In this document: positions 30,081-45,834 of the stretch, one piece after another
Numbering within the stretch: the stretch's first letter is position 1
Layout: each line of letters starts with the position of its first letter
DNA from: an uncultured Bacteroidota bacterium
GTDB lineage: Bacteria; Bacteroidota; Bacteroidia; JABEUT01
Direction of reading: 5' to 3'
NCBI GenBank assembly: GCA_903916255.1
Contig: CAIWVW010000086.1
Location: 381 to 64,380 of the forward strand
Length of the DNA: 64,000 nucleotides
The notes under the pieces: model-generated
Seen by the model: the letters and a program-made list of their open reading frames with translations, nothing else
Database searches by the model: none
What the model was told of the DNA's origin: nothing
Position numbers and translations under genes: made by a program

Positions 30081-30099
30081 GCTAAATATAGTTCCTATT

Positions 30100-30232
30100 G
30101 TCATTGCGAGGCTTTGCGAAGCAATCTCTTTAATAAGAAGATTGCCAAACAGAGTTGGGTGAGATTGTTTACCTGCTTCTATTAATTTCTCAAGGAGTTC
30201 ACGAGCCCTTCGGGGTTGCTTCGCAATGACGA
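30100..30232. repeat. MITE/REP-like palindromic element (family GTCATTGCGAGG..CGAAGCAATC) with terminal inverted repeats
   Basis: Left end gtcattgcgaggctttgcgaagcaatctc. Right end ggttgcttcgcaatgacga, the reverse complement of tcgtcattgcgaagcaacc. The span is about 133 bp and non-coding. Related copies at 40912, 41181 and 43539. Confidence 0.7.
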
Positions 30233-40901: not shown

Positions 40902-40911
40902 GTACAGCCAA

Positions 40912-40942
40912 TCGTCATTGTGAGGCTTTGCGAAGCAATCTT
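40912..40942. repeat. Single-arm copy of the GTCATTGCGAGG..CGAAGCAATC element
   Basis: tcgtcattgtgaggctttgcgaagcaatctt sits immediately after the mpl stop. One mismatch (gtg versus gcg) to copies A and C. Confidence 0.65.
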
Positions 40943-41180
40943 ACTAATCCGCTTATTTATTCGGGACTAGTGCGATGTAAAATACGAATAATACAAACAC
41001 TATTACAAACGCTCGCAGCAGCCATTCCCTGAAATCTATTTCTTCTTTAACTTTCATACTCTTTATTATTAAAGTATAGCATGAAATCCAAAAACAAAAG
41101 TATTTCGGCAAAATGAACTCCAAATGAAGCCACAGCCGGTCGGCATTAGAAAGTGTTAAAGGCCCTTGCCAGACATGCAA

Positions 41181-41253
41181 ATAGTGTTGTTCGTCATTGC
41201 GAGGCTTTGCGAAGCAATCTCATTAGCAATAGTAGTAGAGATTGCTTCGTTTC
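41181..41253. repeat. Compact palindromic dimer of the GTCATTGCGAGG..CGAAGCAATC element
   Basis: tcgtcattgcgaggctttgcgaagcaatctc, then a 17-nt centre, then gagattgcttcgtttctcgcaatgag. The arms are near-perfect inverted copies giving an RNA or DNA hairpin of about 72 bp. Confidence 0.7.
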
Positions 41254-41463
41254 TCGCAATGAGGGTCCGAGCCGGACTGGCAATCAGGTCAGCAGTTGCT
41301 CGAAAAAAGCACCGATTTGTTTTTCTTTATCCACAAAGTGGAGCTCTAAAATCCAGTGGCGTACCCCCGCTCTTGAATAGCATTGAACAATTGCTCTGCA
41401 ATTTTTTCGGCTTGGATGAGGTTGGTTTTGGTAGTGGAGGTTGGCATGGGGTGAGTGAAATAA

Positions 41464-42369
41464 TTATCTTAATAATTTTACATTTAATAATTTTTCGTCA
41501 TTAAATACTGGTATTTCCTTACTACCATTTGTTTTATAAAAGCCATCGCCACCCTCAAAATAGTAATAACCATTTGAATAACAGAACCAATTCTCACCAA
41601 TTTGAGGTTCCATAAATACTTTTTTCCTTGTTTTACTTTTCAATGAATATTGAAATATAGGGTGCCTACCTTTAAAATAGCCATTTAAATACAAAAAGGA
41701 ACTATCATCAACCCAGTATAATACATGTTTTAAGCCATCTACGCCCATTTGGTATACAGAATTTGCGCTATCAATTTTTTCTATTTTTCCATTTTTAAAA
41801 TCCATTAGCATCAAGTAGGTAATACCATAGGTAGTTTCGGTCAAATCTTTTGTATAGAAAAAAATTGCAAATTTTTCATTTGGCGATATGCATAAATTTG
41901 AAACATTAATATAGTTTGGCAACTTGATAGTATCAATTTTATCATTTAAAAAATTTAATTTGATAAACTTATCATTACCATCATACCTATGGTCACCAAT
42001 AGCTTCTGTCGTATCAGTATTGTATATGATGTAAGCATTATTATGTTGAATTGTAAATTCTAATATATTATTTAAAGAGGAAAGTTTTTTAGAAATCGTA
42101 TAATCTTTATTGACTTGGTAAATATTAATTCCATTCGTAAAATAAATAATTCCATTTTTAGACACATCCCATTCTGTGATGAAATTTATCATTTCAGTTT
42201 TCAAAAATGAAGTGGAGAATGCTATCCGTTTAACTAATTTATTATTATTAATTATCTTAAAAATCGCACTATCCTTTGCTCCATAATCTTGAATTAAGAA
42301 ATCTTGAGCAAGTAAACAATTCGGTAAAAAAAGAAAAATTAGCAGATTAAACTTCATACTCAAAGGCAA
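41464..42369 (-). CDS. AT-rich secreted hypothetical protein (accessory island cargo)
   Basis: Signal peptide MKFNLLIFLFLPNCLLAQ. 301 aa with no recognisable motif. Coding GC is visibly lower than the flanking housekeeping genes. Confidence 0.5.
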   Translation of the reverse strand: MPLSMKFNLLIFLFLPNCLLAQDFLIQDYGAKDSAIFKIINNNKLVKRIAFSTSFLKTEMINFITEWDVSKNGIIYFTNGINIYQVNKDYTISKKLSSLNNILEFTIQHNNAYIIYNTDTTEAIGDHRYDGNDKFIKLNFLNDKIDTIKLPNYINVSNLCISPNEKFAIFFYTKDLTETTYGITYLMLMDFKNGKIEKIDSANSVYQMGVDGLKHVLYWVDDSSFLYLNGYFKGRHPIFQYSLKSKTRKKVFMEPQIGENWFCYSNGYYYFEGGDGFYKTNGSKEIPVFNDEKLLNVKLLR

Positions 42370-42514
42370 ATATAAAACTCTAAATTACTAAATATCCTAT
42401 TATTGGTTATCTTGACTTTAGTGGGTGCAAGATTTAAATTAAACTTCAATTTCCTTAACCGCAAAGGTGCGCAAAGAAAGGTGAAGGAGAACAAGGGGCT
42501 AAAGCCCCAAAATT

Positions 42515-42562
42515 GGCGGGTTTATTTATACCCCACCATAAATGGCGGGGCTAATGAATGAA
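42515..42562. repeat. Direct repeat 1 flanking the toxin-antitoxin cassette
   Basis: ggcgggtttatttataccccaccataaatggcggggctaatgaatgaa. Near-identical to the copy at 43071..43116 (ggggtttatttataccccaccataaatggcgggactaatgaatgaa). Confidence 0.75.
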
Positions 42563-42602
42563 AATTACCTATCTTTGCATGAGGAATAACTATAAAGCAT
42601 CT

Positions 42603-42794
42603 ATGACCTACATTTCAATAGATACGAATAAAAAAGAGGCGTTGCTTTTTTTAGAGTACGTTAAAACATTGTCTTTTGTAACTATTTATCAAAAGCCAAA
42701 CCGTGTAACACGGGCAGCCCTAGGTGAATCAAAAAAGGGGAAGACCAAAAAGCATAAAAGTTCTAAAGAACTTATTTCATCTTTAAATAAGTAG
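42603..42794 (+). CDS. Putative antitoxin partner of the YafQ-like toxin (small basic-tailed protein)
   Basis: 63 aa from the internal ATG (MTYISIDTNKKEALLFLEYVKTLSFVTIYQ...). The longer ORF-track start at 42558 runs into the flanking repeat. Stop is 3 nt before the toxin start, a typical toxin-antitoxin arrangement. No recognisable antitoxin motif. Confidence 0.4.
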   Translation: MTYISIDTNKKEALLFLEYVKTLSFVTIYQKPNRVTRAALGESKKGKTKKHKSSKELISSLNK

Positions 42795-42797
42795 GCC

Positions 42798-43070
42798 TTG
42801 TTTACATTACGCACTACCAATCAATTTCGAAAGGATTATAAGGTATGCCGTAAAAGGGGTTTAAATCTGGAGTTAATCAACGAAACATTTGAACTTTTAG
42901 AAAAAACAGGCGAGGTACCTGCTGAATATAATCCTCATAAATTACGCGGTAATTATTCAGGTTATTGGGAGTGCCATCTCTTGCCCGATTGGTTATTGAT
43001 ATGGTACTGCAACAAAAATAAAAAGGAAATTCATTTAGTAAGGACCGGCACACACAGCGACTTATTTTAA
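42798..43070 (+). CDS. Type II toxin, YafQ/RelE family mRNA interferase
   Basis: FRKDYKVCRKRGLNL...L..L...G.VPAEYNPHKLRGNYSGYWECHLLPDWLLIWY....KEIHLVRTGTHSDLF aligns along its whole length with E. coli YafQ (F.KD.K...KR...HxLxG...GxRxCHxxPDWxLIY...RTGTHxxLF). Confidence 0.85.
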   Translation: MFTLRTTNQFRKDYKVCRKRGLNLELINETFELLEKTGEVPAEYNPHKLRGNYSGYWECHLLPDWLLIWYCNKNKKEIHLVRTGTHSDLF

Positions 43071-43116
43071 TTAGGGGTTTATTTATACCCCACCATAAAT
43101 GGCGGGACTAATGAAT
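43071..43116. repeat. Direct repeat 2 flanking the toxin-antitoxin cassette
   Basis: Begins at the first nucleotide after the toxin stop codon. 44 of 46 positions are identical to repeat 1. Followed by four consecutive perfect stem-loops (ctaatgaatgaa/ttcattcattag, ccacggc/gccgtgg, gggct/agccc, aagccc/gggctt). Confidence 0.75.
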
Positions 43117-43254
43117 GAACGGCGGGATACCTTCATTCATTAGCCACGGCTTTTAAGCCGTGGTTGGGTTAATACAATACAATTGGTAGGGCTTTAGCCC
43201 TTAAATAAAAGCTAAGCCCCACCCACAAAGGTTCGCAAAGCCCGAAGGGCTTCA

Positions 43255-43411
43255 ATGTGAGTAGCCACAGGAGAATCCGGTGGTAAATAGTGCAGGATTA
43301 ATTGCAACCCTGAAAGGGTTGAATAAACAGCAATGTGTTTTTCTGTTCAACCCTTTCAGGGTTGCAAATCATTGTTTGGTTTATACCACCGATTACATCG
43401 GTGGCTACTCA
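43255..43411. repeat. 155-bp nested palindromic element (MITE-like / long hairpin)
   Basis: Outer inverted repeat tgagtagccac / gtggctactca. Inner perfect 22-bp inverted repeat ttgcaaccctgaaagggttgaa / ttcaaccctttcagggttgcaa. Each inner arm is itself a 7-bp hairpin (caaccct..agggttg). No ORF. Confidence 0.7.
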
Positions 43412-43485
43412 TATTTAAGTCCTCCGGACTTCGGTCTGTATTTAAACGGCCACCCACCCTGCCCATCCGGGGGATGGGGAATCTG

Positions 43486-43530
43486 TAAAAACAAAAAACC
43501 CTTCCATTTCTGAAAGGGTTTTATTTTATT
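43486..43530. terminator. Rho-independent terminator downstream of pnp (minus strand), usable bidirectionally
   Basis: aacccttccatttctgaaagggtt stem-loop with A-tract on the plus strand and T-tract on the minus strand (aaaacaaaaaa upstream, ttttattttattt downstream). Confidence 0.65.
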
Positions 43531-43538
43531 TATTGGGT

Positions 43539-43565
43539 AAGATTGCTTCGTTCCTCGCAATGACG
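43539..43565. repeat. Inverted single-arm copy of the GTCATTGCGAGG..CGAAGCAATC element
   Basis: aagattgcttcgttcctcgcaatgacga, the reverse complement of tcgtcattgcgaggaacgaagcaatctt. Lies between the pnp stop and its terminator. Confidence 0.65.
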
Positions 43566-43611
43566 AACTAACGTTTGCCAGTCGGGCTCCGACTGCTCGT
43601 CCGGCTCGGAC

Positions 43612-45834
43612 CTATCTGCGATGTCCGCCGCCACGTCTGTCGCCGCCGCGTCTGTCACCTCCGCCGGAGCGGAAACCGCCACCGTTGCTTTCTTCTTCGG
43701 TAGGTTCAGGCATGCCTTCAGGGCGTGGTAAAAGCACTTTACGTGATAATCTGTATTTGCCCGTTTTTTGGTCAACTGCCAACAGTTTCACACGTACAGT
43801 GTCACCTTCGTTAAAGATGCCTTGCATACTGTCGAGGCGTTTCCAGTCTACTTCCGAAATGTGGAGCAGACCTTCTTTTCCCGGCAGGAATTCAACAAAT
43901 GCGCCGAATTCAACAATGCTCTTTACTTTTCCTTCGTATTCGGTTCCGGGTTCAGGTATAGTAGTAATTCCTTTAATGCGGGCCAAAGCAGCGTCGATAG
44001 CTTCTTTGTTCGGTGAGGAAATATCTACATAACCCATTCCGTCTTTTTCTTCAATTACAATAACAGCACCGGTGTCGGCTTGTATGCCTTGAATAACCTT
44101 TCCACCCGGACCTATAACTGCACCGATCATATCCTTAGGAATCTTGATTTGGATAATACGAGGAGCATAAGGTTTGTAATCGGCATTCGGGCCGGCAAGT
44201 GTTTTAGCCATTTCGCCTAATATGTGGAGACGTCCGTTGCGGGCTTGTTCCAATGCCTGTGCAAGCACTTCGTAGGAGAGTCCGTCAATTTTAATATCCA
44301 TTTGGCAGGCGGTGATACCGTCTTTTGTTCCGGTAACTTTAAAGTCCATATCGCCAAGGTGGTCTTCATCGCCGAGGATATCAGAAAGGATAGCGAATTT
44401 ACCGCTCTTAGGGTCAGCAATCAATCCCATAGCAATACCTGCAACGGGTTTGGTAATTTGCAGACCTGCATCCATCAATGCTAAGCATCCTGCGCAAACA
44501 GTCGCCATAGATGATGAACCATTCGATTCTAATATATCAGATACGATACGAACAGTATATGGATTTTCAACTGGCATAACGGCTCTTAAGGCACGTAATG
44601 CAAGGTTACCGTGGCCTATTTCGCGGCGGCCTGTGCCACGCATCATCTTCGCTTCGCCGGTTGAGAACGGAGGGAAGTTATAGTGCAGCATAAAGTTATT
44701 TGTTCCGTCAATCACGGCTCCGTCAATTAACTGGGCATCTAATTTGCTACCCAAAGTTACTGTTGTAAGTGATTGTGTTTCGCCACGGGTGAAGATAGCT
44801 GAACCATGCGCCATTGGCAGGTAAGCTACTTCGCTCCATATCGGGCGGATTTCATCGCCTTTGCGGCCATCCAAACGCACTTTTTCATTCAGCATGCAAT
44901 CGCGAACGGCTTCTTTTTCTATTTCAAAAAAGTAACGTTTCATCATGCCTGCTTTTTCTTCTTTTTCTTCGTCGGTAAGGGTTGCTTTAAATTCATCGCG
45001 AACGGCTTCAAACCTTTCATTGCGGACATGCTTGTTGGCCAACCCTTCAGTAGCGATGGTATAAAACTTTTCGTAGCAATGCTTGCGCATATTTTCTTTC
45101 AAATGCTCATCGTTGGTTTCGTGGGAGTATTCGCGTTTTTCAGTCGCGCCTACCAACTTAGCCAATTCTAATTGGGCCTTGCATTGGTCCTTGATTACAT
45201 CGTGGGCCAGTTTCAATGCTTCCACCATTTCGGCTTCGCTGCATTCTTTCATCGAACCTTCCACCATGTTCAAATCGTTCATGGTTCCGGCAACAATAAT
45301 ATCTAAGGTGGCATTTGCGTTTTCTTCAAAGGTAGGGTTAACTACAAATTTGCCATCAATTTTAGATACACGAACTTCCGATATGGGCCCGTTAAACGGG
45401 ATATTGGAAACAGCAATAGCGGCAGAAGCTGCTAATCCGGCTAACGAGTCAGGCATAACCTTGCCGTCGGCAGAGATTAAGTAAACCAATACTTGGATTT
45501 CTGCGTGGTAATCATCCGGGAACAATGGGCGTAATGACCTGTCAATGAGACGGGAAATTAAGATTTCATATTCCGAAGGACGGGCTTCGCGCTTGAAGAA
45601 TCCGCCGGGGATACGTCCCGAAGATGCAAATTTTTCTTGGTAATCAACGGATAAAGGAAGGTAATCCATACCTTCTTTAGCGTCTTTGTTTGATACTACG
45701 GTAGCGAGTAACATGGTGTCGCCCATGCGAACCACTACGCTTCCGTCTGCTTGTTTGGCCAGCTTACCTGTTTCTATGGTAATAGACCTGTCGCCTTCAC
45801 CCGGAAGAGCGATTTTAATGTTTTTTATATTCAT
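43612..45834 (-). CDS. pnp: Polyribonucleotide nucleotidyltransferase (PNPase) with Arg/Gly-rich C-terminal tail
   Basis: Two RNase PH domains (GRREIGHG and further conserved motifs), KH domain ([10 protein letters not shown]), S1 domain ([15 protein letters not shown]). Then [23 protein letters not shown] at the extreme C-terminus. Confidence 0.95.

Follow-up and report, generated by a model that had tools for sequence, protein, structure and literature searches.

We analysed a 64,000-nt stretch of DNA from an uncultured Bacteroidota bacterium (contig CAIWVW010000086.1, positions 381 to 64,380; hereafter the window), in which a YafQ-family toxin-antitoxin (TA) operon stands between two near-identical direct repeats. 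The feature is real and its parts are all of known kinds, i.e., an ordinary TA in a known type of repeat. The reading that we favour, and consider rather likely, is that this locus is a chromosomal type II TA operon lying inside a cluster of repetitive extragenic palindromic (REP) sequences, and that it was arranged by recombination of the REP units. The locus is not an assembly artefact, because four independent contigs of the same population carry the identical arrangement of TA and repeats. In what follows, L-numbers designate the compared loci (51 in all) and P-numbers designate proteins.

The repeat is 45 nt long and occurs at 42518-42562 and 43075-43119, the two copies being identical at 44 of 45 positions (one mismatch, G/A). 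Exactly two copies are present in the 64 kb, where shuffled sequences gave an expectation of 0, and a gapped alignment lengthens the match to 52 nt at 94%. Two open reading frames (ORFs) in the same orientation lie between the copies. An earlier reading of the sequence alone (the sequence-only reading) had described 46-bp direct repeats bracketing the gene pair at 42515-43116: the repeat does exist and adjoins the module on both sides, with a length of 45 nt and borders a few bases off. The same reading placed the start of the right repeat on the nucleotide after the toxin stop, which proved incorrect: the TAA occupies 43068-43070, the ungapped repeat begins at 43075, 4 nt past the stop, and the stop is overlapped solely by the gapped extension of the right copy. 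From left to right, the locus is composed as follows.

42450-42517, plus strand: left flank of the repeat cluster, which contains the junction motif TTTCCTTAACC at 42450-42460, a short palindrome, GGGGCTAAAGCCCC, at 42495-42508, and CGCAAAG repeats.
42518-42562, plus strand: left REP unit of 45 nt, with the head GGGTTTATTTAT(A), the hairpin CCCCACCATAAATGGCGGGG at 42531-42550 and the tail CTAATGAATGAA at 42551-42562.
42563-42602, plus strand: putative TA promoter and 5' untranslated region, in which TATCTTTG at 42570-42577 fits the Bacteroidetes -7 box.
42603-42794, plus strand: antitoxin of 63 residues, with a predicted N-terminal strand-helix-strand module and the tail PN..T..A....GK....K..K.L.
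42798-43070, plus strand: YafQ-family toxin of 90 residues, with a TTG start 3 nt past the antitoxin stop (42794).
43075-43119, plus strand: right REP unit of 45 nt, with its hairpin at 43088-43107 and its tail at 43108-43119; this unit forms the first partner of a complete dimer.
43120-43131, plus strand: 12-nt spacer CGGCGGGATACC, which separates two inverted 12-nt tails and varies among copies.
43132-43163, plus strand: inverted partner REP unit, with the tail TTCATTCATTAG at 43132-43143 and hairpin C, CCACGGCTTTTAAGCCGTGG, at 43144-43163.
43164-43210, plus strand: right arm of the composite element, ending in the palindrome GGGCTTTAGCCC at 43189-43200 and in TTAAATAAA.

The 45-nt repeat is a REP-type unit, made of an AT-rich head, a 20-nt imperfect GC hairpin and a 12-nt tail. 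The right-hand copy opens a dimer and, counting the palindrome GGGCTTTAGCCC located about 25 nt beyond the hairpin CCACGGCTTTTAAGCCGTGG, the composite folds into three hairpins in tandem, with z-scores against shuffled sequences of -5.3 (RNA) and -5.9 (DNA); the hairpin of the right unit carries a G>A change which weakens its stem. The left unit is solo, stops exactly at the start of the TA module and is 100% identical to the unit of E1, one of the two intact dimers of the related locus L018. Since the right copy starts a dimer and the left solo copy ends at its tail, a 557-bp segment, composed of the TA module and one REP unit, lies precisely between two dimer partners. According to the literature, REPs form head-to-head or tail-to-tail dimers as well as bacterial interspersed mosaic elements (BIMEs), and those found singly are what remains of a dimer; other DNA can enter between the two partners, and insertion sequences use REPs as targets (PMC3733652).

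The same composite is found in other genomes. A scan of 185,579 species genomes with the 20-mer ACCCCACCATAAATGGCGGG returned 19 loci, and the complete composite (unit, spacer, inverted unit) is present in four Bacteroidia metagenome-assembled genomes (MAGs), at L012, L017, L018 (two copies, the intact dimers E1 and E2) and L022. At L012, the intact dimer lies between rplI and a parC/gyrA-like gene, and at L017 and L022 it follows other ordinary genes (upstream of L017, a recF-like gene and small unnamed ORFs), these neighbour names being read from ORF translations without a family-model test; no TA is found near any of these three dimers. Across the seven composite copies compared, 97.6% of the proposed pairs are kept, and the stem of hairpin C is held by three compensatory pair substitutions across genomes. 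Such an organisation is that of a REP dimer of the REPIN/BIME type. The spacer is the variable part of the dimer: it measures 12 nt in the window, L012, L018 and L022, and carries a 53-nt insertion in L017. An Ignavibacteriaceae MAG (L025) also contains a 41-nt match at 93%.

The sequence-only reading had proposed that the repeats are duplicated target or attachment sites. Such an explanation, in which the repeats would be the attL/attR sites or the target-site duplication of a TA-bearing integrative element or transposon, would suit two near-identical direct repeats adjoining both ends of the module. It is contradicted by the REP dimers that carry no TA (L012, L017 and L022) and by the presence of the hairpin at Y1 transposase genes (L021, L044 and L049); conversely, the TA occurs elsewhere without the repeat. 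Moreover, the 512-bp cargo codes for the TA alone, and no recombinase, integrase or transposase was called in the roughly 10 kb that flank the locus on each side. Known transposon target duplications are also far shorter than 45 bp. The window contains no tRNA or tmRNA fragment that could have been an integration target, and blastn found no match for 42440-43215 in PLSDB or INPHARED that would point to a plasmid or phage origin. Altogether, we consider this explanation very improbable. A CRISPR-like repeat is ruled out by the anatomy, with two copies 557 nt apart and genes between them.

The element is linked to Y1 transposase genes in other genomes. At L021, a gene that codes for a 144-residue Y1_Tnp protein (E 2.5e-29) is followed, some 30 nt on, by the exact hairpin, and this gene is bracketed by direct hairpin arrays. 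This protein belongs to a family of about 1,950 members, several of which are named 'REP element-mobilizing transposase RayT' by JGI. Two further Y1 genes, at L044 (83% identical) and L049 (63%), have variant hairpins on both sides, concentrated at the gene flanks, among them CCCCACCGTAAACGGCGGGG (compensatory, AT>GC in L044), CTCCGCCATTTATGGCGGAG and GGGCTAAAGCCC / GGCCTAAAGGCC. In the literature, RAYT genes are flanked by REPINs (PMC5581495). As an additional observation, the stop TAA sits in the loop of the GGCCTAAAGGCC / GGGCTAAAGCCC palindrome at L021 (5197-5208) and at L044/L049 (about 1627-1640), so that these three Y1 genes end inside a REP-like hairpin.

The identical 20-nt hairpin core is also found in intergenic position in MAGs of Burkholderiales, Betaproteobacteria, Zixibacteria, Omnitrophica and Thermodesulfobacteriota (L008, L009, L013, L016 and L024). 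In two of them, the outer stem is altered and still paired, as GTCTCGCTTGACCCC...GGGGTCAAGCGAGAC in L008 and AAGAAAAACCCC...GGGGTTTTTCTT in L024. Finding this core in distant phyla suggests that the REP core is shared very widely, or that Y1 transposases have a common specificity.

Concerning the operon itself, the toxin matches the Pfam model YafQ_toxin (PF15738) over residues 3-90 with E 3.4e-30 and 104.6 bits (cut-off 30), and the TIGR02385 RelE_StbE model with 65.2 bits (cut-off 27.9); against the narrower TIGR00053 YafQ model it scores 64.8, under the cut-off of 87.25. It aligns end to end with HP0892 of H. pylori (E 3e-15; PDB 4nrn/2otr), and its residues 6-90 align with E. coli YafQ (E 1e-12; PDB 4ml2/4q2u). 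The hidden Markov model check and the full-length alignment with HP0892 confirm the end-to-end match to YafQ noted in the sequence-only reading, and the family models above cut-off, together with the small gene immediately upstream, bear out its assignment to a YafQ/RelE-type type II TA pair. The motifs PHKLRG, ECHLLPD and GTHSDLF are aligned to DHPLKG, ECHLKPD and GSHSELF of HP0892, and presumably hold the equivalents of the catalytic residues H50, H63, D67 and H87 of E. coli YafQ. By analogy with these proteins, the toxin should be a ribosome-dependent mRNA endonuclease. Its ORF is intact in the window, with a weak TTG start. Like DinJ-YafQ of E. coli and V. cholerae and like HP0892 of H. 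pylori, the system combines a full-length YafQ homologue with an antitoxin gene immediately upstream; an ordinary DinJ/YafQ-like function would be expected, i.e., a toxic protein neutralised by its partner.

In three relatives, this module decays toxin-first. The toxin is inactivated in L018 by a CGA>TGA nonsense change at codon 11 (minus strand), to which a W>C change is added, and in L043 (5215-5490) by a 1-nt insertion causing a frameshift, and it is deleted in L051 (1557-1640); in each of the three, the 63-residue antitoxin ORF is intact, which lends indirect support to the toxicity and to its neutralisation by the partner. The antitoxin-toxin gene pair is kept in L003, L005, L026, L041, L042 and L050.

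The start of the antitoxin gene is well defined. All 39 homologues out of 39 are of about 63 residues and begin with MTYI, which places the start at the ATG 42603, at a distance of 41 nt from the repeat. Another ATG, at 42558 inside the left repeat, from which the sequence-only reading had started the gene, is part of the repeat and recurs in its right copy; the 78-residue extended ORF (42558-42794) that begins there was treated as spurious. We also treated as spurious a 52-residue ORF (42403-42561) which reads through the hairpin (...PTINGGANE). Gene callers are misled by the repeat, since some assemblies call the 78-residue antitoxin from the REP tail and others the 63-residue one, and ORFs reading through the hairpin give rise to recurrent pseudo-peptides (...PTINGGANE, ...NPAIYGGV...) in several genomes (the window and the L001/L002 calls).

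Upstream of this start, the box TATCTTTG may serve as the promoter of the operon, the Bacteroidetes -7 consensus being TAnnTTTG. The 5' edge of the TA module is kept as AATT[AT]C[CA]TATCTTTG, and DNA homology to L018, L041, L050, L042 and L003 begins at 42559-42569. A sigma-70 promoter scan was uninformative for Bacteroidetes.

The antitoxin belongs to an unannotated family: it has no Pfam or NCBIfam match at E<=1, the DinJ/RelB model PF04221 included, and an exhaustive search with the antitoxin profile gathered 232 clusters (50% identity) at E<=1e-3. A distant relative, P0244, gives a sub-threshold match to the C-terminal part of RelB (E 0.008). The tail of DinJ wraps YafQ, and residues 31-61 of the family profile align weakly (E 0.15) to residues 56-86 of this tail in the crystal structure of V. 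cholerae DinJ-YafQ (PDB 9lew_A). With hhalign, the antitoxin tail matches residues 45-83 of an E. coli DinJ sequence entered by hand, with E 0.007 and a probability of 5%. A Foldseek search with the AlphaFold model of the antitoxin returned DinJ chains as its top 5 PDB matches, drawn from three DinJ-YafQ complexes (E 0.11-1.6). These results are mutually consistent and none is significant alone, so that they weakly argue for a resemblance to the DinJ tail. DinJ is a ribbon-helix-helix protein of about 86 residues with two helices, whereas the 63-residue antitoxin shows a single predicted helix (11-20) before the tail in its AlphaFold model (pLDDT 77), a monomer in which dimer strand pairing is not visible. 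We read the antitoxin as a shortened DinJ-like protein, which would have kept the toxin-binding tail and carry a small strand-helix-strand module in place of a recognisable ribbon-helix-helix. The sequence-only reading had called this partner neither DinJ- nor ribbon-helix-helix-like and motif-free: the lack of any Pfam or NCBIfam match agrees with it, and the weak and consistent DinJ-like character of the C-terminal half does not.

Elsewhere, the N-terminal module (MTYITIDTNKKQA..FLEYVKTL.F) is joined to unrelated C-terminal tails (L034, 3001-3264; P0167 and P0168), and the DinJ-like tail is joined to a different N-domain in P0281. At the level of their sequences, this is domain shuffling among Bacteroidia antitoxins, as in the usual modular build of antitoxins. 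A metagenome scan with the antitoxin profile yielded 15 loci, none of them close enough to carry the REP.

The TA module and the repeat have separate distributions. In other genomes, the module is located between plsX and fabH (L003/L004), by a tRNA-like region (L005) or directly after the stop codon of a neighbouring gene (L050), with no flanking repeat at any of these sites. Bracketing repeats sought around the TA in L003, L004, L005 and L006 were just short ones at chance level. Across sites, the module is a unit of about 510 bp, from AATT[AT]C[CA]TATCTTTG to the toxin stop. Among the relatives, the 45-mer accompanies the TA in the two closest only (L018 and L041, with antitoxins 95-98% identical), where it is the right-hand unit, downstream of the toxin alone; indeed, L041, the closest relative (antitoxin 98% identical), has the repeat downstream and none upstream.

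In these two relatives, a block equivalent to positions 42563-43119 of the window (557 bp) is collinear with L018 (92.5%) and L041 (93.0%), and its flanks differ in each. In L041, a different repeat (TTTCCTTAACC, then CGCAAAG/CTTTGCG) precedes it, and the remainder of a degenerate dimer comes next. In L018, a complete dimer stands before it and unrelated DNA after it, the intact dimer E1 being located 0.5 kb upstream. The left flank of E1 is also that of the window (and is found before a junction in L043 as well), and at 10 of 12 positions the E1 spacer reads as the reverse complement of the window spacer. What the sequence-only reading saw as a mobile cassette is thus kept in a weaker form, that of a discrete block, the TA together with one REP unit, whose flanks differ among three genomes, while its attachment- or target-site form is lost. 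From the sequences, the window can be read either as an E1-like dimer with a block between its partners, or as a TA that has a solo unit before it and a dimer after it.

The spacer is flipped between genomes, with CGGCGGGATACC in the window and CGTATCCCGCCA in E1 of L018, which suggests an inversion or a template switching across the 12-bp inverted tails. The spacer of L041 resembles that of E2 in L018 (TGTTCC...).

In the explanation that we favour, the TA operon has a putative Bacteroidetes-type promoter of its own, a 63-residue antitoxin with a DinJ-like tail and an intact YafQ-family toxin, and the bracket would most likely arise through recombination at REP units, in a TA-rich hot spot located between a Mur-ligase gene and pnp. 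REP-directed recombination of the 557-bp block is plausible, though unproven, since the block is collinear in the two relatives and has different flanks in each. It could have taken several routes: a REP-by-REP crossover with a circular or sister copy; a Y1-type strand transfer at the tail end, by a RAYT/IS200-type enzyme coded elsewhere; or a deletion from an L018-like array. The match of the spacer to that of E1 mildly favours intercalation into a dimer over the other routes. By analogy with REPs in E. coli, the TA mRNA probably ends in the downstream hairpins, which would give it a structured 3' end and may act there as a terminator or a stabiliser.

A more specific possibility is that the 557-bp unit is a non-autonomous cassette, on which a Y1 transposase acting in trans would cut after ...GAATGAA and insert the unit 3' of another REP tail, in analogy with IS200/IS605 and palindrome-associated transposable elements (PATEs) or with integron cassettes at attC; the junction of the circle would read ...CTAATGAATGAA/AATTACCTATC. 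The ends of the block are sharp, at 42563 and 43119, the flanks differ among the window, L018 and L041, and those of the window, once rejoined, give a canonical E1-like dimer: the left flank is that of E1, and the spacer matches when inverted. In copy 3 of L018, too, the break falls after GAATGAA, the 53-nt insertion of L017 is found in the same spacer, and Y1 genes are themselves bracketed by direct hairpin arrays. In IS608, cleavage at the right end occurs about 10 nt 3' of the hairpin, which the breakpoint of the window, 12 nt 3' of its hairpin, recalls. In IS200/IS605 and PATEs, subterminal hairpins in direct orientation bracket a cargo, as they do at the Y1 gene of L021. However, the window unit contains no transposase, no Y1 gene is present in the window, and the block conserved in the relatives lacks at its left end the hairpin that IS200/IS605 ends need. 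The three occurrences of the block are not independent insertions, because all of them lie in the pnp-linked hot spot, and no copies with identical ends were found at independent sites. Furthermore, the cassette of L041 is not preceded by a REP unit, that of L018 follows a whole dimer rather than a tail, copies of the TA elsewhere move without any REP, and no TA-less allele was found among the contigs with identical PNPase. On balance, we judge this cassette unlikely.

Alternatively, the bracket could be the by-product of a deletion or an unequal crossover in an L018-like array (dimer, other gene, dimer, TA, dimer), with the loss of the stretch from the first REP unit to the TA promoter and with no insertion of the TA. 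Such an array exists at L018, in the same hot spot, where copy 3 looks like a dimer minus its second unit, and REP arrays are known to vary through gain and loss of units (PMC3733652). Yet both ends of the deletion would have to fall exactly on module boundaries. In addition, the window spacer is like that of E1 (inverted) and unlike the one in the dimer located after the TA in L041, so that an origin of the right half from an E1-like dimer fits better. This scenario appears to us distinctly improbable.

Several points weigh against the explanation by REP recombination that we prefer. The element is of low apparent copy number: it occupies one locus in the 64 kb, whereas REP families are usually of high copy, and the scan found 1-3 exact copies of the 20-mer per related genome, these genomes being MAGs in which repeats may be undercounted. 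The foot of its hairpins is tagged TTAG (CATTAG/CCCCGCC..., CATTAG/CCACGG...), and not GTAG or CGTC as in the described REP super-families (PMC3733652). The RAYT link comes from three loci, all in other genomes, and the 64-kb window holds no Y1 gene. All the contigs with identical PNPase carry the TA at the same spacing, which leaves no TA-less allele for comparison, and the route may have been an insertion, a REP-by-REP crossover or a deletion from an L018-like ancestor. The sequence-only reading had foreseen that the repeat might be an abundant generic one, unrelated to cassette boundaries; in kind it is indeed a generic REP family, but not in abundance.

Compared with the REP/BIME/REPIN and RAYT systems of E. 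coli, Pseudomonas and Stenotrophomonas, the element of the window shares short, GC-rich, imperfect extragenic palindromes that form inverted dimers around a short spacer and occur after genes and beside Y1 genes, with solo units and with DNA between dimer partners. It differs from textbook REPs, besides its copy number and its foot, by 12-nt tails which pair, by its host, an uncultured Bacteroidia, and by the presence of a protein-coding TA operon between dimer partners.

The interval from the Mur-ligase gene to pnp (40902-43611 in the window) is hypervariable and rich in TA modules, and L018, L041, L043 and L051 correspond to the same region. In L043 (2900-8800), it contains AbiJ, a DUF433/PIN pair and a ParE pair in addition to the YafQ TA, in L041 a HigB pair, and in L018 an HNH protein and small ORFs. 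The modules are parted by a junction element (J), which begins with TTTCCTTAACC, continues with CGCAAAG/CTTTGCG heptamer repeats and ends in a common -7 box; in L041 and L043, the box TAATTTCATATCTTTGTAAT stands upstream of two different TA modules. Among the 51 loci, the junction motif is found in the hot-spot loci, with one isolated match in the unrelated L021 which we take as chance.

Small modules parted by repeated junction elements in one orientation evoke an integron-type array, with attC sites and possibly of the CALIN kind (attC cluster without integrase), and TA cassettes are typical of chromosomal integrons. As in the TA cassettes of the Vibrio superintegron, with their VCR/attC sites, a small TA is placed between foldable, near-identical direct repeats, with accessory modules around. 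On the contrary, no IntI is found nearby, nor any recombinase within about 10 kb, and the repeats fold into three separate hairpins rather than one long imperfect hairpin. Paired RYYYAAC/GTTRRRY core sites were not seen at the ends (as read from the sequence), the modules have putative promoters of their own and lie in both orientations, and the junction element is not consistently structured (z = -3.3, +0.9 and +1.1 at three loci). We give this explanation next to no credence.

Other features surround the locus. Positions 43238-43431 of the window form a long imperfect inverted repeat, with 86-nt arms that are 76% complementary and nested small hairpins (GAGTAGCCAC...GGTGG / CCACC...GGTGGCTACTC), kept at 86% in the syntenic L043 (6310-6504). 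An Rfam scan of 42300-43700 gave sub-threshold matches alone, of miRNA type and on this long hairpin at 43.3 kb, and hence no known RNA family. This repeat could be an element resembling a miniature inverted-repeat transposable element, or a structured RNA downstream of pnp. A second repeat family, the imperfect palindrome TCGTCATTGCGAGGCTTTGCGAAGCAATCT, is intergenic at 30094-30132, 40912-40946, 41191-41225, 41239-41262 and 43537-43563; several copies lie around the hot spot, and the family is also present at both ends of L018. Finally, a neighbouring protein of 297 residues differs by one residue from its L001 copy, and a look-up found no record of it.

What these results mean is, first, that a false lead is removed: the neat direct repeats at the TA are REP palindromes and not the sign of a new att-bearing mobile cassette. 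Their value lies in a family of REP dimers, linked to Y1 transposases, that occurs in uncultured Bacteroidia and shares its hairpin with several phyla, while REP/RAYT biology has been described mostly in Proteobacteria; in a widespread and unannotated family of short antitoxins which may keep just the DinJ-like toxin-binding tail; and in a hot spot next to pnp that gains TA modules, which are apparently rearranged there at REP boundaries and decay toxin-first. If TA movement were directed by REP ends, it would link RAYT/REP systems to gene mobility. The strongest version, in which REP units are recombination handles for cargo of gene size and a RAYT/IS200-type Y1 transposase cuts the TA-plus-REP block at the tail end and pastes it, is a speculative one to which we give little weight. 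If it were true, the pnp hot spot would be an integron-like array built on HUH/Y1 chemistry and not on a tyrosine-recombinase integrase, and it would provide the first example of protein-coding cassettes shuffled by RAYT-REP systems.

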